Origin: an uncultured Bacteroidota bacterium
GTDB taxonomy: Bacteria > Bacteroidota > Bacteroidia > Chitinophagales > LD1
Assembly (NCBI GenBank): GCA_903927935.1
Contig: CAIYOV010000293.1
Span: 1-46,890, forward strand
Direction: 5' to 3'
Length of the DNA: 46,890 nt
Shown here: positions 2,181 to 37,073 of the stretch, in pieces
Layout of the letters: every line of letters starts with the position of its first letter
Position numbering within the stretch: the stretch's first letter is position 1
Translations under genes and position numbers: made by a program
The notes under the pieces: model-generated
Told to the model about the DNA's origin: nothing
The model's database searches: none
Seen by the model: only the letters and a program-made list of their open reading frames with translations

Positions 2181-5100
2181 TTATCTCACCAAAGTAATCG
2201 TTCCGCTCTTATCTTCCGTAGTACTATTATAGAACAAAACTTTCAGCTGATAAACATAAGTATCGTAAGGCATGGCCTTGCCACCTTTCTTTCCGTCCCA
2301 CGCATCGCCATTATTTAAAAGCCCGTTGTGTTGTGCGGCATTATAATAAACGCGCTCGCCCCAACGGTCGAACACAGAAACCTCAATGGTGTTGGCACCC
2401 AAAATGTTCACTTCAAAATAATCATTGAGTCCATCTGCATTTGGTGTAAACGCAGTAGGAATAAAGTATTCCACTTTGTTTTTTACAATCACCGTTATCG
2501 AATCATAGCTGCTGCAATTTCTTCCATCGGTAGCAGTTAAAAAATACATAAACGTTGTATCAGGAGTAGCGTTGGTGCTTTGGCAAGCCGTACAGCTCAA
2601 ATGATTATCAGGCGACCATAAATAACCGGTAATGCCGTTCACCGAAGAAGCTGTTCCGTTCAAAGTAACTGTTTGTCCACGCACCGAAACTAAATCAGGT
2701 CCTGCATCTACAAAAATAGAAGTAGGCTCGCTAATGGTAAAGTTCTGCGAACCAAAACAACCGTTGTTATCCTGCGCAATAGCCGTGTATTCACCTGCTG
2801 CTAAACCGGTAAGCAAGCTGTCTGGCTGGTAAACATTATTTAATGAATACTGATAAGGAGCACTTCCACCCGAGGCGTAAATCAGCACTGTTCCGTCATT
2901 GCCGTTAAAACAGGTTACGCTATCTGGAACCGTACTCACCACAACCGGTGTAGGGTCAGTAAGCAGAACGCTGTTGGTACTGGTACAACTGTTGCCATCG
3001 GTAATAGTTACGGTGTAAGTAACATTACCTAAAAGATTGACTCCCATCACCCCGCTTTGAGCAGGAACTGTGCTCCATGCATAAGTATAAGGAGGCATGC
3101 CGCCACCCGCACTTACAATTGCAAAGCCTGTAGCTTTCCCATGGCAATCAGGATTATTACCTGCAACCGATGAAATTAAATCAGGTGGACTTGGAACGGT
3201 GTACGATTCTGAATGGCTGCATCCGTTAAGGTCAGTTATAGTAACCTGGTAATTACCTTTAGTTACACCAATTAAATTTTGGCCGACTCCACTGTTTGAC
3301 CATACATAATTGTAACCGGGTGTAGCGCCTGTAACTGTAATATATACAGCACCATCGGCAGAACTGAAACACTTGGCTGGTATAATACTATCGCTTACAG
3401 CAAACGGATCAGGCTCAGTTACCTGCACATTAGTAACAAAACTGCAACCGTTGCTATCAGTCACGGTAACTACATATAGACCTTCCGTCAAGTTAGTAAT
3501 GCTGGGAAGCTGTTGAGCAGTGCTCCATAAATAGGTATAAGGTGGCGTTCCTCCTGCAACGGTTGCGGAAGCTGTTGCAACCGAAGTATTCGGGCAAATA
3601 ACTCCTGTTACTGAGGTAGTAACACTTAATGGCGAAGCCGGTTGAGTGATAGTGTAGGCGGCCGAAGTAGAACATCCTGCAAAATCGGTAACGGTTAATG
3701 AATAATTACCGGAACTAATGCCGTATACATCTTCACCGGTGTAGCTGTTGCTCCACGAATAAGAATAAGCCGGAATTCCGCCATTTACAGTAATATCTAA
3801 ACCACCACTCGATTGGCCGAAGCACGAAACATTTATCTGATGCTCTAAAGACAGAACCAATTGATTGTTCTGGCCAATAGTTCCGCTGGTGGAAGCCGTA
3901 CAACCTGCCCCATCAGTAACCACAACTGAATAATTTCCCGCAACAACATTTGCAAGGTTTTGGGCAACGGAACTGTTCGACCACAAGTAAGAATAAGTTC
4001 CATCGCCACCGGTTGCTGTCATATTGATAGCACCGGTGCTGTCACCAAAGCAATGTACATTAACTACTGAAGTAACGGTTGCCGTCAGAACAGGTCTTTC
4101 AATAATAGTAACCGATACACCATCAGTACAGCCATTCGCATCTTTAGCAATAACGGTATAAACACCGCCCGATAATCCGTTGAATGTAGGACTTGCCTGA
4201 TAAGTGTTGGCGCCATCAATTGAATATTGATAAGGAGCTAATCCGCCTGTTTGCGTAATAGTTACTGAACCATCGGCTCCGCCATGACAACTAACATCTG
4301 TTTGACTAAGCACGCTTGCAACAAGTGAATAAGTATTTCCAACAGTGGCAGTAGTAGAAGCCGTGCAGCCGTTTACATCCGAAACGAGGATAGTGTAGTT
4401 CCCCGATCCAACATTTGTAAAAGTTGAGTTAGGAAAGAATGGTCCATTGTTTAATGAAAAAGTGTAAGGTGAAGTTCCACCCGTTGCTGCTACGGTAATA
4501 GTTCCGTTGGTAGTAGTAGCACAACTTGAATTGGTGGCTGTAGTAGTTGCCGCAACCGGAACGGGTTGTGAAATAACCACCGGATTTCCGAGGAAAGGAT
4601 AGGAGCAATTGTTCGCATCTTTCACTACAATATTGTAGCTGCCTGCTGACAGATTGGCAAATATTGAACTTGGCTGATAAGTGCTTCCATTATTTATAGA
4701 GTAAGTAAGGTTGCCTGAGCCACCACCTGCAAAAATATCTATACGGCCGGTACTGCTCCCATTACAACTCGCATCTACTTTGTTTACGAAAATACTAACC
4801 GGATTCGGCTGGTTAAGAATAACCGAGTTGCCGGAATAAATAACATTGCAACCGCTGGCATCTTTTACCCATATATTATAAAACCCTGCAGCCAGATTGC
4901 TGAACACATTTGATGTTTGCCAGGTAGCTCCTGCATTGTCAGAATATTGCAAAGCACCGTTTCCTCCGTTAGCATTTACTGTTATGCTTCCGTTTGATGA
5001 GCCATAACAGGCCGGGTCTACCTTGGTAACACTTACAATATTTGGTTGGCCTACGGTTATCGTATATAAGCGATAGCTCAGACTTTCGCACGCACCGTTA

Positions 5101-5978
5101 GCTGTATGAACCCTAAAAGTTGTGGTAGTTCCTACAAAAGGCGTAATCTGCGAACCGGATCCTACTAATATGTTGGTAGCATTGTTATACCAGTGATAAT
5201 CGCCACCGAAAACCGCACCGTTTGTTTGCAGGGTTACTAAGCCCGGCTGACATAAAACGTTTGCTGTCGAAACAACAGCATCAGGAATCGGTGGTGTCCA
5301 ACTGGCAAGCACTTCTGCTCCAATGTCTCCGGTTCCGCAACCGGATGAAAAATAATCACCTACCCAGCCGTTGCCAACCGTTGGGGGTGAAAACAAACCA
5401 AGGCAAGGAGCCACTACGCGATAATTAATTGTGCTATTGATAATTTGAGGACCGCACTCGTTATCTTCTGCGGAACAACCGCAAAGTATATTGCCGCTGC
5501 AGCCGCAACCATGGTCGTTTATATAAGAACTGCACTGGTCGCAGGACCAGGTAAATGTGCCGGTAGAGCGATAGCAATCGTAACAATCATCTTCCCAACC
5601 TTCGCCCTGCAATTGAAAATATTGGGGAACAGCCTGGGGTGTAGAACCTATAGTGCCGTAAGTATAATTAAGCAGGTTTACATCTTGTGAGTTTATCCAC
5701 CCCACACTGGTAGTATTTGATCCTATGGTAGTTCCTCCTACAAAGCCCTGGCCGTCTAAGTTGGCATTGTCAGCTCCCCACCATCTCCAGCGGAATTCCA
5801 AATCGCCTAATTCGTTCGGGAAAACTATGCCATTAACATAAGAATACCCAACTGCCATTTTCAGGTTCATGGCACCGTCATTATATGTTTGAGCGGTAAC
5901 GTTGACAGAAGTATATATGGCAAACAACAGCAAAACTGTTTTTGCAAAATGTGCGTGTAATTTTTTAATCATTCTCAT
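2181..5978 (-). CDS. large cell-surface protein: Cys-rich N-terminal domain, about ten SprB-type repeats, T9SS type B (gliding motility-associated, CHU_C) C-terminal sorting domain
   Basis: 1265 aa with a signal peptide (LLLFAIYTSVNVTAQ). Repeated modules fit C.G..(D/N)G.(I/V).V...GG..PY.Y.WS. The C-terminus reads FIPTAFTPNADGLNDYFEV....VSVFDRWGERVY....DGK..GK..P.DTYVYQL, typical of the type B sorting domain. Confidence 0.85.
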   Translation of the reverse strand: MRMIKKLHAHFAKTVLLLFAIYTSVNVTAQTYNDGAMNLKMAVGYSYVNGIVFPNELGDLEFRWRWWGADNANLDGQGFVGGTTIGSNTTSVGWINSQDVNLLNYTYGTIGSTPQAVPQYFQLQGEGWEDDCYDCYRSTGTFTWSCDQCSSYINDHGCGCSGNILCGCSAEDNECGPQIINSTINYRVVAPCLGLFSPPTVGNGWVGDYFSSGCGTGDIGAEVLASWTPPIPDAVVSTANVLCQPGLVTLQTNGAVFGGDYHWYNNATNILVGSGSQITPFVGTTTTFRVHTANGACESLSYRLYTITVGQPNIVSVTKVDPACYGSSNGSITVNANGGNGALQYSDNAGATWQTSNVFSNLAAGFYNIWVKDASGCNVIYSGNSVILNQPNPVSIFVNKVDASCNGSSTGRIDIFAGGGSGNLTYSINNGSTYQPSSIFANLSAGSYNIVVKDANNCSYPFLGNPVVISQPVPVAATTTATNSSCATTTNGTITVAATGGTSPYTFSLNNGPFFPNSTFTNVGSGNYTILVSDVNGCTASTTATVGNTYSLVASVLSQTDVSCHGGADGSVTITQTGGLAPYQYSIDGANTYQASPTFNGLSGGVYTVIAKDANGCTDGVSVTIIERPVLTATVTSVVNVHCFGDSTGAINMTATGGDGTYSYLWSNSSVAQNLANVVAGNYSVVVTDGAGCTASTSGTIGQNNQLVLSLEHQINVSCFGQSSGGLDITVNGGIPAYSYSWSNSYTGEDVYGISSGNYSLTVTDFAGCSTSAAYTITQPASPLSVTTSVTGVICPNTSVATASATVAGGTPPYTYLWSTAQQLPSITNLTEGLYVVTVTDSNGCSFVTNVQVTEPDPFAVSDSIIPAKCFSSADGAVYITVTGATPGYNYVWSNSGVGQNLIGVTKGNYQVTITDLNGCSHSESYTVPSPPDLISSVAGNNPDCHGKATGFAIVSAGGGMPPYTYAWSTVPAQSGVMGVNLLGNVTYTVTITDGNSCTSTNSVLLTDPTPVVVSTVPDSVTCFNGNDGTVLIYASGGSAPYQYSLNNVYQPDSLLTGLAAGEYTAIAQDNNGCFGSQNFTISEPTSIFVDAGPDLVSVRGQTVTLNGTASSVNGITGYLWSPDNHLSCTACQSTNATPDTTFMYFLTATDGRNCSSYDSITVIVKNKVEYFIPTAFTPNADGLNDYFEVNILGANTIEVSVFDRWGERVYYNAAQHNGLLNNGDAWDGKKGGKAMPYDTYVYQLKVLFYNSTTEDKSGTITLVR

Positions 5979-6010
5979 GGTTTAATAATTTGTAATGCTT
6001 GGGGAATGAA

Positions 6011-6847
6011 TCAATGGTTGTCTTGTGGGTTAACAACTTTGCCATCTTTCTTTTCTTGTAATTTGGTGTTTACAATTAACCGGTAATTGGCGGCATCAAA
6101 TTCTTTAGGAAATTTATAATCCTTTCCATAAAGATGGTCGAACTCCTCTGGTTTAAAAACAAAATACCAGTTGCGTAATTCCAGCTGGTATTTGTATTCA
6201 TCCATCACGGGGTTATTGGTATTATGTTTGCCTGGCTTGCTGTAGGTAAGCGGTGAACCAATGAATTTAGGCAGGTAAGGAAGAGTAAAGTATCCTTTAT
6301 AATAAGGATTAAGCGCAGTCAGTTCAGGGGCATTCAGAAAGTGCTCGTATTCTTCGGTGTATAGACGTTGCCAGGCACCAAATTTTTCGGCATAAACCGA
6401 TAATTCCTTATCCATGTCATTCTTCAGATTAGGAAGCGGAAAGTGAGGGAATAGTTGGTTTCTTTTTACATCAGAAATATTTGAAGCTTTATACCATTGA
6501 TACATGGGGTGTGCAAAATCTTTCTTTGCTTCGGGAACCTGCACGCCTAAGGTGTTCCAGGCAATGTTCAGCTTTTTAACGGCCGGCTGGCTCGCAAAGC
6601 TGTTCCACTCAGCCTCATGGCTTTTAATAAAGGAGTTAACGTCTTCGGTTTTGTAATCTTTGTTTTTTACAACCTGATATAAATGAGGGAAATCTTTTTT
6701 CAAAGTTTCCTTATCCAGATTGGCGGTAATAAAAACTTGCTCGAAAGGAGTAGAGTTGATTTGAGCAAATAAAGAACGCGTGTTTAAAAACAGGAAAAGA
6801 AAAAGCAGCGAAAGCCATCTTCTTTTCAGAAAGTAGAGTTGCAACAT
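6011..6847 (-). CDS. hypothetical secreted protein
   Basis: 278-aa ORF with an N-terminal signal peptide (LLFLFLFLNTRSLFAQ). Rich in aromatic and Lys residues. I do not recognise a family. Confidence 0.55.
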   Translation of the reverse strand: MLQLYFLKRRWLSLLFLFLFLNTRSLFAQINSTPFEQVFITANLDKETLKKDFPHLYQVVKNKDYKTEDVNSFIKSHEAEWNSFASQPAVKKLNIAWNTLGVQVPEAKKDFAHPMYQWYKASNISDVKRNQLFPHFPLPNLKNDMDKELSVYAEKFGAWQRLYTEEYEHFLNAPELTALNPYYKGYFTLPYLPKFIGSPLTYSKPGKHNTNNPVMDEYKYQLELRNWYFVFKPEEFDHLYGKDYKFPKEFDAANYRLIVNTKLQEKKDGKVVNPQDNH

Positions 6848-7092
6848 GTGGTTAATTTTTTTTAGTGCTGCGTAAATATATCAAAGCAATTCAGATTTCC
6901 GAAAGTCAGGCTTTTTAACGTTTGGCTGAGTGTGCCTGCCTGCCCCTTACCCTGCGATTTTTTCTTTCAACAATTACCATTTTTTGGGGATAAAATAAGC
7001 TGCTTAAATCGCGGTAGGATGGGCAATTTTATTAGATTCGCGCTCGCCCCGACCCAAGCTATTTTGCGAAGGTGGGGCAATCATTTTTTTAA

Positions 7093-9081
<1,989 letters not shown>

Positions 9082-9109
9082 TTCAGTAGGCAGTAAGCAA
9101 GAAATACCA

Positions 9110-9138
9110 AGCCCTCCGAAGAATCGGGGGGCTTTTTT
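9110..9138 (+). terminator. rho-independent terminator of gyrB
   Basis: AGCCCTCCG-AAGAAT-CGGGGGGCT forms a 9-bp stem with one G-U pair, followed by TTTTTT, about 30 nt after the gyrB stop. Confidence 0.75.
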
Positions 9139-9165
9139 ATACCTTAAACATTCATTTTAACTCAA

Positions 9166-9417
9166 TAACAGGCTTGCGCGCTCGGTCGAGAGCCTTGCGA
9201 CCTATCTCAAAAGGCTTGCGCGCAACTTCAAATCGTTTGCGCGTCATTCCAAATCGTCTGCGCGTTACTTCAAATCGACTGCGCGCTAAACCAAATGCAT
9301 TGCGCGTTACTTCAAATGCTTTGCGCGTCAAGTCAAATCGTCTGCGCGTTACTTCAAACTGTCTGCGCGGCTCCGCAATCCGTCTGCGCGCCAGCTCAAC
9401 ACGACTGCGCGTTTTCG
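9166..9417. repeat. tandem array of 12 x 21-bp direct repeats, consensus CAAATCGTCTGCGCGTTACTT
   Basis: (T/C)TGCGCG recurs at 9174, 9216, 9237, 9258, 9279, 9300, 9321, 9342, 9363, 9384 and 9405, with a degenerate TTGCGA at 9195, so the period is exactly 21. Units 3-12 all start with CAA. Units 5 (9250-9270) and 9 (9334-9354) are identical. Confidence 0.9.
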
Positions 9418-9562
9418 GTGCAGCAGCAAAACTCTATGCAATTTCGGGTCCTTCTCAAGTCCCCTTCATGTGATCAAGGGGCTCACATCTTACTTCAAAG
9501 TGCACATCATGTTTTCTTTCTCTCAAATCATTCGCTTAATTTGGATTCGCAAATAAACAATC

Positions 9563-12500
9563 ATGAAGAACCTCGTCCTTGCTCTCGCACTTTTCATTTC
9601 CATTTTCAGTACACAACATACAATTGCCCAGCGCTGCGCCAGCATGGACCATTTAAAAGACCAGTTGCAGAACGACCCTGCCCTTGCCGCACGCATGCAG
9701 CAAATAGAAACCGAAACCAATCAGTTTGTTTCTTCGTACCATAATACCGGAAGCCGCGCTATTATTACCATACCTGTAGTGGTGCATGTAGTGTATAATA
9801 CAACCGCACAAAATATCAGCAACGCGCAAATACAATCGCAGATAGACCGCCTCAACCTCGACTATCATAAACTGAATACCGATATTAGTTCAGTGCCATC
9901 GGTGTGGCAAAGTTTAGTAGCCGATTACGAAGTTCAGTTTTGCCTCGCTAGCAAAGACCCGAGCGGCAATGCTACTACCGGTATCAGAAGAGTTTCTACC
10001 AGCACCACTTCTTTTTCAACCAACGATAATGTAAAGCGCACGGCCAACGGAGGCGATGATGCCTGGCCGGCAGCATCTTATTTAAACCTATGGGTGTGCA
10101 ATTTAAGCGGAGGCGTCTTGGGCTACGCGCAGTTTCCAGGTGGCGCAGCGGCTACCGATGGAGTGGTTATTACCTACACCGGTTTTGGTACCGGGGGCTC
10201 AGCTCAGGCACCTTATAACTTAGGAAGAACCGCTACGCATGAGGTTGGCCACTGGTTAAATCTATACCACATTTGGGGCGATGACGGCAGCGCCTGCTCG
10301 GGCAGCGACCAAGTGAACGATACCCCTAATCAGGGTTCGGAAAACTATGGCTGTCCTACCTTTCCGCATACAGATGCCTGCTCGGCTTCATCACCGGGTG
10401 TTATGTTTATGAACTACATGGATTACACCGATGATGCCTGTATGTATATGTTTACCAACGGGCAAAAAACACGCAGTCTGTCATTATTTAATAGCGGAGG
10501 TTCAAGAGCATCTTTGCTGAATTCGCAGGGTTGTCAGTCTATTGCCTCTCCACCGGTAGCCAATTTTACGGCAGATGTCGTGAATAGCTGCACTGGTATA
10601 ATCAGGTTTACGGATTTAAGCAGCAATGCGCCTACTTCATGGAGCTGGAATTTTGGCGATGGGCAAACTTCCACCACTCAAAACCCAACGCATTTATTTA
10701 ATGCTAACGGAACCTACACGGTTACCCTTACGGCTACCAATGGTTTTGGTTCTAACACAAAAACACTAACCAACTACATTACTGTAAGCAAACCGGCAGC
10801 ACCGTCAGCCAGCGATGCATCGCACTGCGGCTCGGGAACCTTTTCGCTTACCACTTCCAGCACCAATCCCGTAGCGTGGTTAGATTCGAACGGCACTAAA
10901 GTTTCATCGGCTAATCCTTTTGTTACACCGGTGCTTACACACACCACCACTTACTGGCTGCAGGATACTGTGGGTGGCACGCAATATCATGTAGGTCCTG
11001 CAACCAACTCAGGCAGCGGTGGATATTTGAACAGCAACTGGTCGCTTATTTTTAATGTAAACACAGCTTGTGTTTTGCAGTCGGTTTATGTGTATGCCAA
11101 TGGTGCTGGCAACCGCACCTTTGAATTACGAAATTCAGGAGGAACTGTACTACAGTCGTTAACCGTTAATGTTCCTACCGGAGCAAGTCGCGTTACACTA
11201 AACTTTAATCTGACTACCGGTACCGGTTTTCAACTCGGTTTCGCCATCGGAAGCACCATCAATCTGTATAGAAATAATGCAGGTATGGCTTATCCTTATA
11301 CAGATGCCGGTGGTTACGTAAACATAACCGGTAACAATGCCACCAACGCAACTTCCTACTACTACTATTGCTATGACTGGATTTTACAGGGAACCGGATG
11401 TGTATCGCAGCGCAAAGCGGTGACTGCTGTAGTAAGTGCGGGGTTAAATGCAGCGACTACGGTAACTAACGCTACCTGTGGTTCAAGCAACGGAAATGCC
11501 ACCGTAACTATTACGGGTGGAACGCCTAACTATACCTACAACTGGAGTACCGGAGGAACCGGTCCTTCAGTTTCTAATTTAACTGCGGCCACTTATACCG
11601 TTACCGTAAACGATGCAAACAGTTGCTCCGGTACCGCTACGGCTATTGTGGCTAATTCTTCTTCTCTGGTATCTGCAAAATCATCTACTGATATCACCTG
11701 CTTTGGCGGCAATAACGGAACGGCCTCAGTAAACGTAACCAGCGGAACACCCAACTATACTTATTTGTGGAGTAACCTGGCAAACACCTCTGCAGTGAGT
11801 AATCTAACCGCAGGAAATTATTCTGTCACCATTACCGATGGCAGCAACTGCCAGCATGTTGATTCATTTACACTTACTCAGCCGGCTGATATGACCATTC
11901 AGGTAACTACCAACAGTGCGCATTGCAATGGGCAGGCAACCGGAATGGCGAATGCAACAGCTACCGGTGGTAATTCCGGCTTCATTTTCAATTGGTCTAA
12001 CAGCACGAGCGGACCATCTAATATTAATCTTGCTGCTGGAAATTATGCAGTTACGGTTACCGATGCAAACAGCTGTTCATCCTCATCTACATTTATTATT
12101 GATGAACCTACCGCCATTACCATGAACACCACTTCAACATCGGTAAGTTGTTTTGGTGAGAATAACGGAACCGCAAATGTGATTCCATCAGGTGGTGTCG
12201 GCAACTTCACCTATTCATGGTGCAACGGAAATACCACACACAATGCTTCGAATCTAAGTGCAGGCAATTGTACAGTAACGGTTACAGATGATAATGCCTG
12301 CACCGCAACGGCCAGTGTAACTGTTCAGCAGCCTGCTCAAATTCAAATTACCACTTCAACAACTAACGGCAATGCTTCGGTCGATACGGTTACCGGAGGA
12401 GCATCACCTTTCACATATGTGTGGAGCAACGGACAGACTACCCAAGATATAACAGGACTACTTTCGGGAAATTATGTGGTAACGGTAACCGATAATAATG

Positions 12501-12799
12501 GTTGCTCGGCCGCAGCCGGAGTAACAGTGCTTGACAACCAAATAGGTTCCTTTGCCAACGAAATTTTATTCAGTGTTTTCCCGAACCCGGCTACCAACCA
12601 GGTTATATTGAAATTAGACAAAGTGAATGATAAAACGATGGTGGAACTGAAAAATGTATTGGGGCAAATTCTTTTCAGCAGAAACATTCCGTTGATTCAA
12701 ACTAAAATCGATCTCACTCATTTTGCTAACGGTGTTTACTTTATTGAAGTAAAACAAGGCGATAAAAAATCAGTGAAAGAAATTATAGTGAATAAATAA
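9563..12799 (+). CDS. secreted M43-family zinc metalloprotease (pappalysin/cytophagalysin-like) with PKD domain, uncharacterised middle domain, SprB-type repeats and T9SS type A C-terminal sorting domain
   Basis: 1078 aa with a signal peptide. Metzincin motif HEVGHWLNLYH plus FMNYMDY. PKD signature WNFGDG.TS....P.H.F...G.Y.V.L. Repeated C.G..NG.A.V...GG.P.Y.Y.WS modules. The C-terminus (FSVFPNPATNQVILKL...NVLGQ...IDLTHFANGVYFIEV) fits the type A Por secretion tail. Confidence 0.9.
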   Translation: MKNLVLALALFISIFSTQHTIAQRCASMDHLKDQLQNDPALAARMQQIETETNQFVSSYHNTGSRAIITIPVVVHVVYNTTAQNISNAQIQSQIDRLNLDYHKLNTDISSVPSVWQSLVADYEVQFCLASKDPSGNATTGIRRVSTSTTSFSTNDNVKRTANGGDDAWPAASYLNLWVCNLSGGVLGYAQFPGGAAATDGVVITYTGFGTGGSAQAPYNLGRTATHEVGHWLNLYHIWGDDGSACSGSDQVNDTPNQGSENYGCPTFPHTDACSASSPGVMFMNYMDYTDDACMYMFTNGQKTRSLSLFNSGGSRASLLNSQGCQSIASPPVANFTADVVNSCTGIIRFTDLSSNAPTSWSWNFGDGQTSTTQNPTHLFNANGTYTVTLTATNGFGSNTKTLTNYITVSKPAAPSASDASHCGSGTFSLTTSSTNPVAWLDSNGTKVSSANPFVTPVLTHTTTYWLQDTVGGTQYHVGPATNSGSGGYLNSNWSLIFNVNTACVLQSVYVYANGAGNRTFELRNSGGTVLQSLTVNVPTGASRVTLNFNLTTGTGFQLGFAIGSTINLYRNNAGMAYPYTDAGGYVNITGNNATNATSYYYYCYDWILQGTGCVSQRKAVTAVVSAGLNAATTVTNATCGSSNGNATVTITGGTPNYTYNWSTGGTGPSVSNLTAATYTVTVNDANSCSGTATAIVANSSSLVSAKSSTDITCFGGNNGTASVNVTSGTPNYTYLWSNLANTSAVSNLTAGNYSVTITDGSNCQHVDSFTLTQPADMTIQVTTNSAHCNGQATGMANATATGGNSGFIFNWSNSTSGPSNINLAAGNYAVTVTDANSCSSSSTFIIDEPTAITMNTTSTSVSCFGENNGTANVIPSGGVGNFTYSWCNGNTTHNASNLSAGNCTVTVTDDNACTATASVTVQQPAQIQITTSTTNGNASVDTVTGGASPFTYVWSNGQTTQDITGLLSGNYVVTVTDNNGCSAAAGVTVLDNQIGSFANEILFSVFPNPATNQVILKLDKVNDKTMVELKNVLGQILFSRNIPLIQTKIDLTHFANGVYFIEVKQGDKKSVKEIIVNK

Positions 12800-24141: not shown

Positions 24142-25947
24142 TTAATCCCAGAAACAGTAACCACCTTCTGAGATCAATTTATCAGCAACTGCTCTGCGAA
24201 TTTCTTTGGTGTTAATCATTTCATATTTAGTGAAACGTTTTAAACCCATTAACATCATACGAAGTTCATCGCCACCTGCAAATGATACGAGAGCAGATTT
24301 TCCTGCTATGTTTATTCTGTCCATCGCATCAAAGAAATAGCACTTCACCATGTCCACATAAATTTGTGAGGCTTCCTGTCCGTGAAGGTTTACTAATTTT
24401 TCAGCGCGTAGCATTCCACTTTCCATGTTAAGAATATCAGCCATCATATCAGAACAGTGCATCAGCAGTTCTTGCTCTTTCTCAAGACCCATCATTAATT
24501 TTTGAACTGCAGAGCCGGCAACTAAAAGGAATGCCTTCTTCGCATTCTTCAACGCATTTCTTTCTGCACCAAAAATATCATCAGCATCGGTCGAAGAAAA
24601 ATCAGGAACACTCATCAATTCTTTTTGAATAGCCATGCCAGGTGTCATTAAATCTAATTTTCCTTTCATGGCAAATTTCAGCAATGCATCCATAGAAAGC
24701 ATGCGATTGATTTCGTTTGTGCCTTCAAAAATTCTATTAATGCGACTATCTCTGTAAGCGCGCGCCATAGGATACTCTTCAATAAATCCATAGCCACCGT
24801 GAATCTGTAAAGCTTCATCTACAGTAAAGTCAAGTACTTCGCTTCCCATAACTTTCAGCAACGCACACTCTACCTGAAACTCTTCTGCCCCACCGGTTAA
24901 ATATTCGGTCATTGATTTTCCCTGTGCTTTCAATTCATGTTCCTTCTGCAATATCAAATCACAAACACGGTAAGAAGCACTTTCTGTCATCCAGGTGCGA
25001 ATAGTCATTTCTCCAAGTTTGCCTTTAATAGCTCCGAACTGCTGAATAGGTGTTTTGAACTGTTGACGCTCTGCAGAATATTTAACGGCTGTACTTATAA
25101 CTCGTTTTGTGCCGCCTAATACTCCGTTGCATAATTTGTAACGACCAATATTTAAAATCTGAAATGCGATTTTGTGTCCTTTGCCTTCTTCACCCAGTAA
25201 ATTTTCAACCGGAACTTTTACATCGTTGAAAAACACCGCGCAAGTGGAAGAAGATTTAATTCCCATTTTCTTTTCTTCTGCACCTATACTTAAACCTTCA
25301 TAACCCCGCTCAACAATAAAACCGGTGAATTTTTTATCGTCACCATCAATTTTTGCAAATACCACAAACACATCGGCAAAGCCTGCATTGGTTATAAATA
25401 TTTTTTGCCCGTTGAGGATGTAATGTTTTTTATCTGTACTTAACACTGCTTTTGTTTTTGCACCAAGAGCATCTGAACCGCTTCCGGGTTCTGTCAAAGC
25501 ATAAGCAGCTTTCAGTTCACCGGTGGCTAATTTTGGAAGATATTTTGCGCGTTGCGCATCCGTTCCGTAATAAATAATCGGACAAGTTCCTATACCTGTG
25601 TGTGCGCCAATGCCAACACTTACACCGTGTCCCCAGCCCAGAACTTCAGTAACGTACGAAAAAGTCATGAGGTCTTTTCCCAAGCCGCCATACTCTTCGG
25701 GAATATGAATACTGAGCAAACCAAGTTCACCGGCTTTTTCAATCACACCGGCACACAGCAATGGGTCTTTCTCTAATTTCTCAAGTGGAATATCAATTTC
25801 TTTTCGCACAAAATCTTTCGTCATTTCGCGCATAGCAGTTTGCTCTTCGTTGATCTGTTCAGGAATATAAACGTCCTGCCATTGCGATTCTTTAATCAGG
25901 TATTCGCCTCCTTTAAGTGTGGTTGCTTTTGTTGTTGAGGTTTCCAT
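24142..25947 (-). CDS. long-form acyl-CoA dehydrogenase (about 600 aa, with extra C-terminal helical domain)
   Basis: 601 aa with ACAD motifs: [45 protein letters not shown]-terminal extension of about 180 aa follows, as in FadE-like long ACADs. Confidence 0.9.
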   Translation of the reverse strand: METSTTKATTLKGGEYLIKESQWQDVYIPEQINEEQTAMREMTKDFVRKEIDIPLEKLEKDPLLCAGVIEKAGELGLLSIHIPEEYGGLGKDLMTFSYVTEVLGWGHGVSVGIGAHTGIGTCPIIYYGTDAQRAKYLPKLATGELKAAYALTEPGSGSDALGAKTKAVLSTDKKHYILNGQKIFITNAGFADVFVVFAKIDGDDKKFTGFIVERGYEGLSIGAEEKKMGIKSSSTCAVFFNDVKVPVENLLGEEGKGHKIAFQILNIGRYKLCNGVLGGTKRVISTAVKYSAERQQFKTPIQQFGAIKGKLGEMTIRTWMTESASYRVCDLILQKEHELKAQGKSMTEYLTGGAEEFQVECALLKVMGSEVLDFTVDEALQIHGGYGFIEEYPMARAYRDSRINRIFEGTNEINRMLSMDALLKFAMKGKLDLMTPGMAIQKELMSVPDFSSTDADDIFGAERNALKNAKKAFLLVAGSAVQKLMMGLEKEQELLMHCSDMMADILNMESGMLRAEKLVNLHGQEASQIYVDMVKCYFFDAMDRINIAGKSALVSFAGGDELRMMLMGLKRFTKYEMINTKEIRRAVADKLISEGGYCFWD

Positions 25948-25972: not shown

Positions 25973-27765
25973 TTAGAAACAGTATTGATCTTCTTCAATG
26001 AGTTTATCTGCAATTCTTCTTCTTGCTGCAATGGTGTTGTAAGCTTCATATTTTGTAAAACGCTTTAATCCCATCAGCATAATGCGAAGCGTATCTCCAT
26101 CATTAAATGCTGTGATAGCATGTTTGCCCGAAAGATTTATTTTTTCAAGAGCATCGCTGATATAAGTTTTTGCCATATCAATTTGCAAACTTGCAGCAGC
26201 TTCTCCGCGAATGCTGATTAATTTTTCGGTTCGAAGCAAAACCGATTCGCAAACGAATAATTCAATCAGCATGTCAGAAATGTTCATGATAATTTCCTGT
26301 TCCTTATCTAAATTGTTCATGAACTTCTGAACGGCTGCACCGGCTGTCATCAATATTGCCTTCTTAGCATTCTGCAATGCTTTCTTTTCTGCAGCAAAAA
26401 AATCATCCGAGTTATCGCTGCTGAAATCAGGAACACTCATCAATTCTTTTTGAACTGCCATAGCAGGAGTGAATAAATCAACTTCCCCTTTCATGGCTTT
26501 CTTCACCAACATGCCTACTGCAAGCAACGATTTATTTCATTTGTTCCTTCAAAAATTCTGCTGATTCTCGCATCGCGGTATGCACGAGCCACAGGATACT
26601 CTTCGCTAAAACCGGTACCGCCAAAAACCTGCACCGCTTCGTCCACCACATACGCCAAAATTTCTGAGCCAAACACTTTTAAGATTGCGCACTCAATAGA
26701 GTATTCTTCTGCGGCAATTAATTTTGCTTGCACCTTGTCAGTGCCTTTTGCCGAAAGGTCGGCAATCATATCATCAATTAAACCACCGGTGCGGTATGTT
26801 GCCGATTCGCAAGCGTATGTTTTAATTGCCATTTCTGCCAGTTTGTGTTTAATAGCACCAAACGAAGAAATGGGAACGTTGAATTGAACTCTTTCGTTGG
26901 CATATTTAGTGGCTACAGTTATTGTTTTTTTTGAACCACCTAAATTGAGAACTGCCAATTTGTAACGACCAATGTTCAGCACATTAAAGGCGATTTTGTG
27001 TCCTTTCCCAATTTCACCCAACAAATTTTCTACCGGTACTTTTACATTATTAAAAAATACCTGACGAGTAGACGAACCTTTAATCCCCAATTTATCTTCT
27101 TCGCTGCCTAAAGAAATTCCTTCGCTCTTTGCATCAACAATAAAGCCGGTGAATTTTTCCCCATCTACTTTTGCAAACACAGTAAAAATGTCGGCAAACC
27201 CCGCGTTTGTAATCCACATTTTTTGCCCGTTCAAAATGTAGTGCTTGCTATCTTCAGTTAATACAGCTTTTGATTTTGCGCCCAATGCATCGCTTCCGCT
27301 ACCCGGTTCTGTTAGGCAGTAAGCGGCTTTAATTTCGCCACTCGATAAACCAGGCAAATATTTTTGTTTCTGTTCAGCAGTGCCGAAATACAAAATTGGC
27401 AGTGTGCCGATGCCGGTGTGTGCTGCAAACGCGGCGGCAAATGAATGTGCAGTTCCCATCTCTTCATTGATAACTGTATCAGTGCAAACATCTACTCCCA
27501 TGCCGCCAAATTCTTCGGGCACGCTTGCACCGAGTAAACCGAGTTCACCGGACTCCAACATAAGTTGTTGTGTAAGTCCCGGTTCTTGTTTCTCAATTTG
27601 TTTTACAATGGGGTGGATGCGATTGGTAACAAAATCTGATGCCGTTTGAGCAAACATTTTTTGTTCTTCGCTAATTTCATCTTTAATAAAAACATTTTGA
27701 AACGAAGTTTCCTTAATTAAAAATTCTCCGCCTTTCAAGATTGTTTTGGTTTGAGTTGTTTCCAT
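25973..27765 (-). pseudogene. tandem paralog of the long-form acyl-CoA dehydrogenase, interrupted by a single -1 frameshift near 26515-26527 (pseudogene or sequencing error)
   Basis: ORF 26515..27765 ends ...[17 protein letters not shown] 25973..26527 continues in another frame with (LL)[35 protein letters not shown], which is colinear with the intact neighbour (..EINRMLSMDALLKFAMKGKLDLMTPGMAIQKELMSVPDFSS). Adding one T to the TT in AATCGTTGCTTGCA restores NR-LLAVGML. Confidence 0.8.
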
Positions 27766-36755: not shown

Positions 36756-36821
36756 TTTGCATTTTTTCAAATATTGATGATTTTTAAAGAAGAATGGCTG
36801 GAAAATGAAGAAGTCCCTCAT

Positions 36822-37073
36822 GGACTACTCCGCGTCCATCTTACAATTTTTGTCGTCCACCAAGGACTTTCAAAAAAGTAACTTAGTCTGCATGAATTCC
36901 TCGGTGGACTCCAAGGAGACTAACTTGGACTACATGGAGTCTAACTTGGTCTCCTTGGAGCGAAACTTACTTTTAAAGAAAAGTAACTTGGACTACTGCG
37001 CGTCCGTCTTGGTCTCCGAGTAGTCCAAGGTTCCGTCCGAGTAGTCCGAGAAGGACTAATCCATTTTTTAGCA
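36822..37073. repeat. array of 12 x 21-bp units, consensus GGACT-N6-AGTC(C/T)-AACTT (16-bp dyad plus 5-bp spacer)
   Basis: Cutting the sequence every 21 nt from 36822 gives: ggactactccgcgtccatctt / acaatttttgtcgtccaccaa / ggactttcaaaaaagtaactt / agtctgcatgaattcctcggt / ggactccaaggagactaactt / ggactacatggagtctaactt / ggtctccttggagcgaaactt / acttttaaagaaaagtaactt / ggactactgcgcgtccgtctt / ggtctccgagtagtccaaggt / tccgtccgagtagtccgagaa / ggactaatccattttttagca. Units 0 and 8 are 19/21 identical and 168 bp (8 x 21) apart. Confidence 0.85.

Follow-up and report, generated by a model that had tools for sequence, protein, structure and literature searches.

The closest published analogues of the element described here are BrickBuilt and, with it, MITEPgRS. 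BrickBuilt is an intergenic, species-limited minisatellite with 23-nt units, also assigned to the miniature inverted-repeat transposable elements (MITEs), and is present in 19 copies per genome in Porphyromonas gingivalis, a member of the Bacteroidota (PMC4596501). Its units combine conserved and non-conserved sites, carry non-random single-nucleotide polymorphisms (SNPs) and often lie beside genes for proteases or for cargo of the Type IX secretion system (T9SS), and as a MITE it has a leader and a tail that end in IS5-like terminal inverted repeats, together with a target-site duplication (PMC4596501). We analysed the 46,890-nt contig CAIYOV010000293.1 of an uncultured Chitinophagales bacterium (Bacteroidota), here called the window (46.9 kb), in which a tandem array of twelve 21-bp units (9166–9417) lies between the gyrB gene and a gene for a T9SS-secreted M43 metalloprotease. 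This array is exactly phased, non-coding, species-specific and fast-evolving, and nine positions of its unit are fixed. Like BrickBuilt, it is strictly intergenic, occurs in one species of Bacteroidota, consists of tandem units of about 20 nt without spacers in which conserved positions stand beside variable ones, shows non-random SNPs between strains, has a protease and T9SS-cargo gene as its neighbour and contains no believable open reading frame (ORF). Unlike BrickBuilt, its unit is 21 and not 23 nt long and the sequences are unrelated, it has neither leader nor tail nor IS5-type terminal inverted repeats, no inverted repeats flank it, and against the 19 BrickBuilt copies we see a single copy in 46.9 kb and the hint of a second in another assembly (L154). 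Unit 1 (GAGAGCCTTGCG) agrees with the inverted repeat of IS5/BrickBuilt (GAGACCTTTGCA) at 9 of 12 positions, a likeness that was discarded, as about 0.35 chance matches of this kind are estimated for the region.

When the sequence is set in register, the array divides head to tail into 12 units of exactly 21 bp, and these are the same unit sequences that an earlier note on this DNA had listed. The first TGCGCG is at 9175, and from 9217 (then 9238 and onwards) to 9406 the hexamer recurs in 21-bp steps without slip, the unit at 9187 carrying TGCGAC in its place, and CAA occupies unit positions 1–3 in 11 of the 12 units, the first having TAA. These two degenerate edge units (unit 0 with TAA and unit 1 with TGCGAC; 9166–9207, plus strand) are followed by ten units in which both blocks are invariant (9208–9417, plus strand), and register and weight matrix give for these the perfect motif CAA-N6-TGCGCG within the consensus CAAATCGTyTGCGCGTTACTT. 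The units at 9250 and 9334 are identical to each other, as had already been noticed. In the array, Tandem Repeats Finder detects repeats at 21, 42 and 84 bp with the best match in the 84-bp register (85%), which points to growth of the array via duplication of multi-unit blocks.

The two blocks differ sharply from the rest of the unit. With the core defined as the nine positions of CAA and TGCGCG, a partition that was picked with the data in view, mismatches to the consensus fall on 4 of 108 core cells versus 63 of 144 non-core cells (Fisher 4e-14), and across the twelve non-core positions the units are only 44% identical to each other. If the 67 mismatches are spread evenly over the unit, nine or more near-invariant positions are expected with p = 1.6e-4. 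The core is retained even in the old, diverged edge units. Moreover, the centre of CAA is separated from that of TGCGCG by 10.5 bp, one helical turn, and the period is 21 bp, so that the conserved blocks share one face of the helix. Thus three statements of the earlier note, that CAA and TGCGCG are essentially fixed while the other positions drift, that this pattern reflects constraint and not recent slippage, and that the cores lie on the same DNA face, find support at the nucleotide level. The composite motif CAA-N6-TGCGCG-N6-CAA occurs nine times in the array and nowhere else in the window, where 0.27 occurrences are expected from shuffles, and no second copy of the array was found within the window.

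Comparison between strains showed that the variable positions turn over quickly, even where the flanking DNA is identical. L154, assembled independently from the same species, has the same GyrB protein without any difference and retains all 12 units. Its blastn alignment to the window (6181–9415) contains four mismatches and a fifth difference follows at 9416; all five lie in the array, so that 5 substitutions in 252 bp of array stand against none in 2,985 bp of flank (p = 2.8e-6). Every one of the five is at a non-core position of the unit (chance p = 0.06), and all belong to its right half (of the array as a whole; p about 0.02–0.03). Selection, or something equivalent to it, acts here on the DNA sequence, as two blocks are fixed and twelve positions change fast between strains.

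This constraint is not that of a coding sequence. Three frames are open across the array, which agrees with the earlier remark that several frames stay open, but column shuffles that keep the composition of each position contain on average only 0.3–0.6 stops in these frames, and the open frames thus carry no coding information. Variation is distributed over the codon phases as 21/26/20, with no excess at third positions. With the NRLRVTS frame as query, phmmer run in full against 1.84 billion representative proteins returned only weak matches (up to 80.7 bits), which are spurious ORFs across unrelated tandem repeats (the DNA of P0247, for example, is AAGTTACAAGTAATGCCTTAC x10, a different 21-mer), and the other two open frames had no match in 5.8 billion protein clusters. 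Between strains, three to five of the five substitutions change the amino acid in every frame, in part drastically. No gene is called over the array in the annotation of L154, and the relatives have no ORF at the site. The array is non-coding, and the suggestion that it is a decayed heptad-repeat coding relic is not supported; the longer intact ORF with synonymous-biased substitutions that would have spoken for a real protein was not found, the relatives lacking an ORF here and the changes between strains being mostly non-synonymous.

We compared the gyrB loci of eight relatives whose GyrB proteins have 93–100% amino-acid identity. The arrangement of gyrB followed by the M43 gene is kept in two of them, L161 (GyrB 96%, spacer of 168 bp) and L153 (93%, spacer of 512 bp), and in L153 an M4 gene follows M43 as in the window. 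Neither of these spacers contains the array; both share with the window only the block of about 80 bp from TCACATCTTACTT to the ATG (9483–9562), and the array together with the next 65 bp is hence a species-specific insertion or expansion, which speaks for a recent origin. In the other relatives gyrB is followed by different genes and the array is absent: L150 and L156 (98%), L157 (96%), L151 and L152 (95%), and L162 and L163 (94%). The array is no component of the protease gene's conserved control region, and the earlier candidate role as a regulator-binding array for the protease locus is weakened by L161 and L153, which keep the gene pair without it. Absence from close relatives had been named in advance, jointly with unchanged expression of neighbouring genes, as an outcome that would speak against a function; the absence is what L161 and L153 show.

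The right end of the array (9416–9417) is a breakpoint of synteny. L154 leaves the window exactly past the last unit and runs not towards M43 but into the conserved upstream region of parE and the parE start, so that from the last unit onward the right flanks of the two assemblies are wholly different; relatives have the same parE upstream region without an array. The contig of L155 stops at 9143, 22 bp before the array. In a third assembly the distance from the gyrB end to the M43 start is 482 bp, the same as in the window, and this spacing independently supports the order gyrB, array, M43. The parE junction is either a real rearrangement at the array, a recombinant with a second, nearly identical copy that lies upstream of parE, or a chimera that the assembly formed through such a copy, and under all three accounts the array is a repeat-driven breakpoint. 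The alternative that the unit is dispersed over very many intergenic sites does not hold in the window, which has one copy, although L154 hints at a second. Separately, three lineages (L154 3283–3312, L158 about 1278–1305, L159 about 3886–3912) share a conserved inverted repeat, ATCAACA-N9/10-TGTTGAT, at about 100 bp upstream of parE, which is a likely operator for a dimeric regulator.

Several well-known classes of repeats share part of this architecture. Plasmid iterons (for instance those of F, R6K, P1 incA and pPS10) are direct repeats of 17–22 bp with a spacing of about two helical turns and up to about 9–12 units. The array, with 12 phased units of 21 bp that are all on the plus strand, fits this description, and also resembles iterons in having two sub-sites about one turn apart on one face and variable spacers; unlike iterons, it lies in an ordinary chromosomal context with no rep gene and no plasmid similarity, and neither an AT-rich unwinding element nor a cluster of DnaA boxes is found near it. 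Pfam scans, which took in all window ORFs of at least 120 amino acids (aa), found no rep, par, cas, hsd or transposase genes, and the remaining genes are ordinary chromosomal ones. A partition centromere would be expected beside parA/parM and parB/parR genes, none of which is present in the 46.9 kb. Hence, of the iteron-like or centromere-like site proposed earlier, the architectural resemblance stands, whereas membership fails on rep and par genes, DnaA boxes and plasmid similarity. gyrB is often near oriC, and an origin of replication was considered and rejected: the window contains 9 DnaA boxes versus 13.5 expected, none near the array, and its GC skew follows gene orientation. LytTR operators consist of 9-bp repeats with 12-bp spacers, and the pho boxes of PhoB/OmpR-type regulators are phased at 22 bp, with two to four repeats in such operators. 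The array matches them in its spacing of 21–22 bp, its core of about 9 bp, its variable spacer and its position upstream of a promoter; unlike these operators, which are conserved with their gene, it has 12 repeats and is missing from orthologous promoters in relatives with the same gene, and no gene for a LytTR or OmpR-type regulator is present in the window.

Repetitive extragenic palindromes (REPs), bacterial interspersed mosaic elements (BIMEs) and variable-number tandem repeats (VNTRs) resemble the array in another way, since it lies just 3′ of a gene terminator and is non-coding, fast-evolving and prone to recombination. REPs, however, are imperfect palindromes with hundreds of dispersed copies, and the unit of the array is not palindromic and forms a single array in the window. 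The head-to-tail repeat with sequence polymorphism between strains is that of a VNTR or minisatellite; copy-number polymorphism was not seen between the two assemblies compared, which both have 12 units, and unlike ordinary VNTRs the array has a fixed sub-motif against strongly diverged flanks. A CRISPR array, in which repeats of 23–50 bp alternate with unrelated spacers of similar length, was excluded, as the units are contiguous 21-mers whose variable parts are diverged copies with a clear consensus and not unique spacers, and no Cas domains are found in the window ORFs. The array is an intergenic bacterial minisatellite with internal constraint, limited to one lineage. Such minisatellites can thus have strong internal constraint, evolve far faster than their flanks and coincide with synteny breakpoints, a behaviour that matters for the assembly quality of metagenome-assembled genomes (MAGs) and for strain typing.

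Database searches agree with the earlier view that the array is not CRISPR and belongs to no known element class. Rfam 15 gave only sub-threshold matches, all on the gyrB terminator and none on the array, and RNA folding compared with shuffles gave z-scores of −1.17 and +0.13 for the two strands, that is no signal. The array had no blastn match in 72,556 plasmids and 50,697 phage records, and a viral scan for the motif array found nothing. A metagenome scan for three CAA-N6-TGCGCG units returned 29 unrelated arrays, none from the source lineage. A scan of a genome collection for four TGCGCG cores at 21-bp spacing returned at least 120 loci, with the source lineage not among the matches listed; these are mostly high-GC tandem repeats, the search pattern having been too loose. 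Literature searches on bacterial 21-bp or TGCGCG repeats gave nothing relevant, and BrickBuilt was found by a separate search.

The interpretation that we favour, with a confidence somewhat short of even, is that the array is a young, fast-evolving minisatellite whose units are putative docking sites for a sequence-specific DNA-binding protein. According to this model, the array would have arisen in one Chitinophagales species, in the interval from the gyrB terminator to the conserved promoter block of M43, and would have expanded partly through duplication of 42/84-bp blocks. Each unit would be the docking site for one protein subunit that reads two successive grooves, and 12 helically phased sites of the same orientation could allow co-operative assembly of a complex about 250 bp long. 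Such a complex might insulate or modulate the M43 promoter 65–145 bp away, titrate the protein, or promote recombination. By analogy, this architecture would be the one found in iterons, centromere repeats and direct-repeat operators, with the array belonging to none of these families. If the units are docking sites, the locus is a natural experiment in which a 250-bp nucleoprotein platform with 12 sites was born de novo by a promoter in one species, and the constrained CAA-N6-TGCGCG directly yields a recognition motif that can be used as bait.

Several observations weigh against docking sites. No binding protein was identified, and no regulator gene stands beside the array in the window. No regulon is visible, because no significant single copies of the motif occur elsewhere in the 46.9 kb: the weight matrix of the 21-bp unit gives the ten good units 22–32 bits, and no other site exceeds 13.6 bits, a value within the range of shuffled controls. 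Absence from close relatives implies that any role is dispensable or very recent. The division into core and non-core positions was made post hoc, and that all five strain differences avoid the core is, with p = 0.06, suggestive only. The cores of other 21-bp arrays in the clade differ, and one shared binding protein cannot explain them all. Intrinsic curvature was set aside as the feature under constraint: a dinucleotide wedge model predicts ordinary curvature for the array (ratio of end-to-end to contour length 0.905, rank 534 of 2,221), whereas an array of perfect consensus units would be strongly curved in the same model (0.58). Z-DNA formed by (CG)3 was dismissed on general grounds, 6 bp being too short.

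The main rival, to which we give a somewhat lower probability, holds that the array is a selfish or neutral minisatellite without host function, VNTR-like or associated with a MITE, which expands, recombines and may spread copies to further intergenic positions and whose core serves its own propagation or recombination or results from mutational bias. It is compatible with docking sites and does not exclude them. Restriction to one species, absence from syntenic relatives and hypervariability between strains are what such a satellite would show, and BrickBuilt is a precedent. Moreover, the edge units are more degenerate than the central ones, the 42/84-bp structure is typical of unequal exchange, and assemblies break or switch partner exactly at the array. 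The concentration of the L154 differences in the right half also fits a hybrid with a copy of about 96% identity upstream of parE. However, nine positions are invariant while twelve diverge to 44% identity, and neutral homogenisation, which acts on whole units, cannot produce this. Terminal inverted repeats and a shared leader or tail are lacking as well, and within the 46.9-kb window there is neither a second copy nor a transposase nearby. Should there be no binding factor, the array is one more species-specific satellite of the BrickBuilt kind, of local interest only.

A wider proposal, which we regard as doubtful, is that the array belongs to an unrecognised class of chromosomal cis-elements of about 200–300 bp, composed of 21-bp phased units with array-specific cores of 6–10 bp, which would nucleate co-operative protein filaments or mark hot spots of recombination or epigenetic change. 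In about 150 kb of DNA from the clade, tandem repeats whose period exceeds 18 bp and which have 2.5 copies or more all show periods of 21, 42, 63 or 84 bp. Hints come from two arrays with other cores that are non-coding or ambiguous. The first, in the related Chitinophagales locus L159 (1013–1306), has 14 exactly phased 21-bp units with a near-palindromic core ACGAGTTCG(T) and variable flanks; it lies between OEP (outer-membrane efflux) and NDH-2 genes about 2.7 kb upstream of parE and is followed by a terminator-like hairpin. Heptads are present on both of its strands with one stop each, so that its coding status is ambiguous. The second, in L162/L163 (7389–7598; 94% GyrB), lies some 1.4 kb downstream of gyrB and comprises ten phased units whose core is the palindrome CACTTWRGTG, and it is non-coding, as stops occur in all six frames. 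The window itself contains another phased repeat of 12 x 21 bp with the core TGGACTnC at 36821–37072 between convergent genes, which is partly covered by a 72-aa ORF (36805–37023; MKKSLMDYSASILQFLSS...). This ORF has an ATG start and a clean leucine-type a/d heptad pattern, contains fewer stops than column shuffles (p = 0.036) and is followed by a terminator-like hairpin; it has no Pfam match and looks uncalled, and from its sequence it is probably a real gene for a small coiled-coil protein. Rfam had no match on any of the 21-bp arrays checked. The arrays of the clade are thus heterogeneous, and we claim no single class for them. In L159, parE (4001–6279) is divided into at least eight short called ORFs, which suggests many frameshifts and either a low-quality long-read assembly or a pseudogene, and the stops in the 21-bp array of that locus are consequently unreliable.

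Further hints for such a class are the arrays of Bacillaceae and the likeness of CAA-N6-TGCG to Type I recognition sites. Among the genome-collection matches listed are numerous 21-bp arrays in intergenic DNA of Bacillaceae, whose (C)TGCGCG(CGAA) core is conserved and whose flanks have diverged, located just downstream of housekeeping genes (bioB, eno, lplJ, mreB). Fictibacillus macauensis has at least seven of them (L029, L038, L044, L080, L089, L115, L117), and two Sporosarcina species (L007, L110) have an array at the same lipoate-ligase locus with the common core TATGCGCGG, that of L110 with a phase shift of 1 nt; further cases are L075, L077, L091, L109 and L068. These arrays have no Rfam or Pfam match, and because the search pattern fixed both core and period, they are no evidence that such a class is enriched.

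A role of the array as RNA, made by read-through from gyrB or from a promoter of its own and acting as a sponge with 12 unstructured copies of a motif or as a source of small RNA, is improbable. In its favour, the units are all oriented alike, a minus-strand match to a sigma-70-like promoter (9458–9431) points into the array, a hairpin is present at 9461–9481, and the lack of folding would suit a sponge that presents single-stranded motifs. Nevertheless, a strong plus-strand terminator lies directly upstream, the units contain no Bacteroidota-type −7 motif TAnnTTTG (judged by eye), neither an Rfam family nor a fold signal was obtained, and the period of two helical turns is a property of DNA and not of RNA.

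Still less probable is that the units are targets of a DNA methyltransferase or Type I enzyme with a bipartite site, so that the array would serve as a hot spot of epigenetic change or recombination or would decoy the enzyme. CAA-N6-TGCG would have the layout typical of Type I sites, in which a half-site of 3 nt that includes an A is separated by a 6-nt spacer from a half-site of 4 nt whose T pairs with an A of the opposite strand. The conserved part of the unit is bipartite with a fixed 6-bp gap and has a methylatable A on each strand, and recombination or rearrangement at the boundary of the array would agree with such a site. Against it, the window has no hsd genes, CAA-N6-TGCG is neither depleted nor enriched (5 occurrences outside the array versus 8.6 expected in the whole window), and the conserved second half-site, TGCGCG, is with 6 nt longer than usual. 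The weakest alternative, a gene for a small heptad-repeat protein or its decayed relic (21 bp being seven codons), is largely refuted and hardly credible: it could draw on the three open frames and on the plausible 72-aa heptad ORF over the other 21-bp repeat of the window, but the open frames have no homologues, no codon periodicity and no more openness than column composition predicts, V to D, L to P, C to R and A to P are among the strain changes, the possible starts are poor (a TTG within the repeat, or the ATG of an ORF that overlaps the real M43 start), none of the frames has an a/d hydrophobic pattern, and the relatives have no gene at the site.

The surroundings of the array are those of an ordinary chromosomal locus. 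Upstream, gyrB (7102–9081, plus strand), assigned by Pfam and homologues, has its closest named GyrB homologues in Chitinophagales MAGs. It is followed by an intrinsic terminator (9109–9140, plus strand), identified by a terminator scan and an inverted-repeat search, with an 11-bp stem and a 4-nt loop; the hairpin (9109–9134) and its T-run mark the left limit of the variable spacer, and relatives carry equivalent hairpins 3′ of gyrB. A 25-bp linker (9141–9165) between terminator and array is partly alignable with relatives and identical in L154 and L155. The most curved 252-bp windows of the 46.9 kb in the wedge model lie at 8968–9240 (ratio 0.65 versus a median of 0.935), a region that spans the 3′ end of gyrB, the terminator and the first array units, the array alone being not unusual. 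Among relatives with at least 93% GyrB identity, the gene 3′ of gyrB differs in at least five ways (M43, EF-Ts, DUF5777, an unknown 335-aa and an unknown 130-aa protein), as seen when L150, L151, L153, L156, L157, L161 and L162 are compared with the window from 9082 onward, and L150 has an Arm-DNA-binding integrase gene 3.5 kb downstream. The 3′ side of gyrB looks like a hot spot of rearrangement or insertion in this clade.

Downstream, a lineage-specific spacer of 65 bp (9418–9482), which contains the 9-bp-stem hairpin at 9461–9481, has no counterpart in relatives or L154. The promoter-proximal block of M43 follows (9483–9562, plus strand; TCACATCTTACTT ... TTTTCTTTCT.TCAAATCATTC.CTTAATTTG) and is mostly conserved in three lineages, with a mean column identity of 76% in the alignment. 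At 9490 this block contains TTACTTCAAA, the same 10-mer as the commonest unit junction of the array. By our own estimate the chance of such a recurrence in the block is about 0.005, and the shared 10-mer hints that the founding unit may have been copied from local sequence. The gene of the T9SS-secreted M43 metalloprotease (9563–12799, plus strand) encodes, according to Pfam, Peptidase_M43, PKD, SprB-repeat and Por_Secre_tail domains; the array thus lies past the gyrB terminator and ends about 145 bp before the ATG at 9563, as first described. An M4 protease gene comes next, and SprB-repeat, PorP/SprF and GldH genes are nearby, a gene content that assigns the contig to the Bacteroidota.

Two minor observations concern other parts of the window and its relatives. 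In three lineages (window 9487–9495, L153 about 8410, L161 about 3068) the conserved motif ATCTTAC(T/A) precedes the M43 start codon by about 75 bp; it recurs in two other intergenic regions (L162 7044 and window 36838), and it may be a promoter or activator element of the clade. An acyl-CoA dehydrogenase gene at 25973–27765 appears split into ORFs of 416 and 184 aa that overlap by 13 nt; it adjoins an intact 601-aa paralogue with the same domain order (24142–25947), and a frameshift, a pseudogene or faulty assembly may account for the split.

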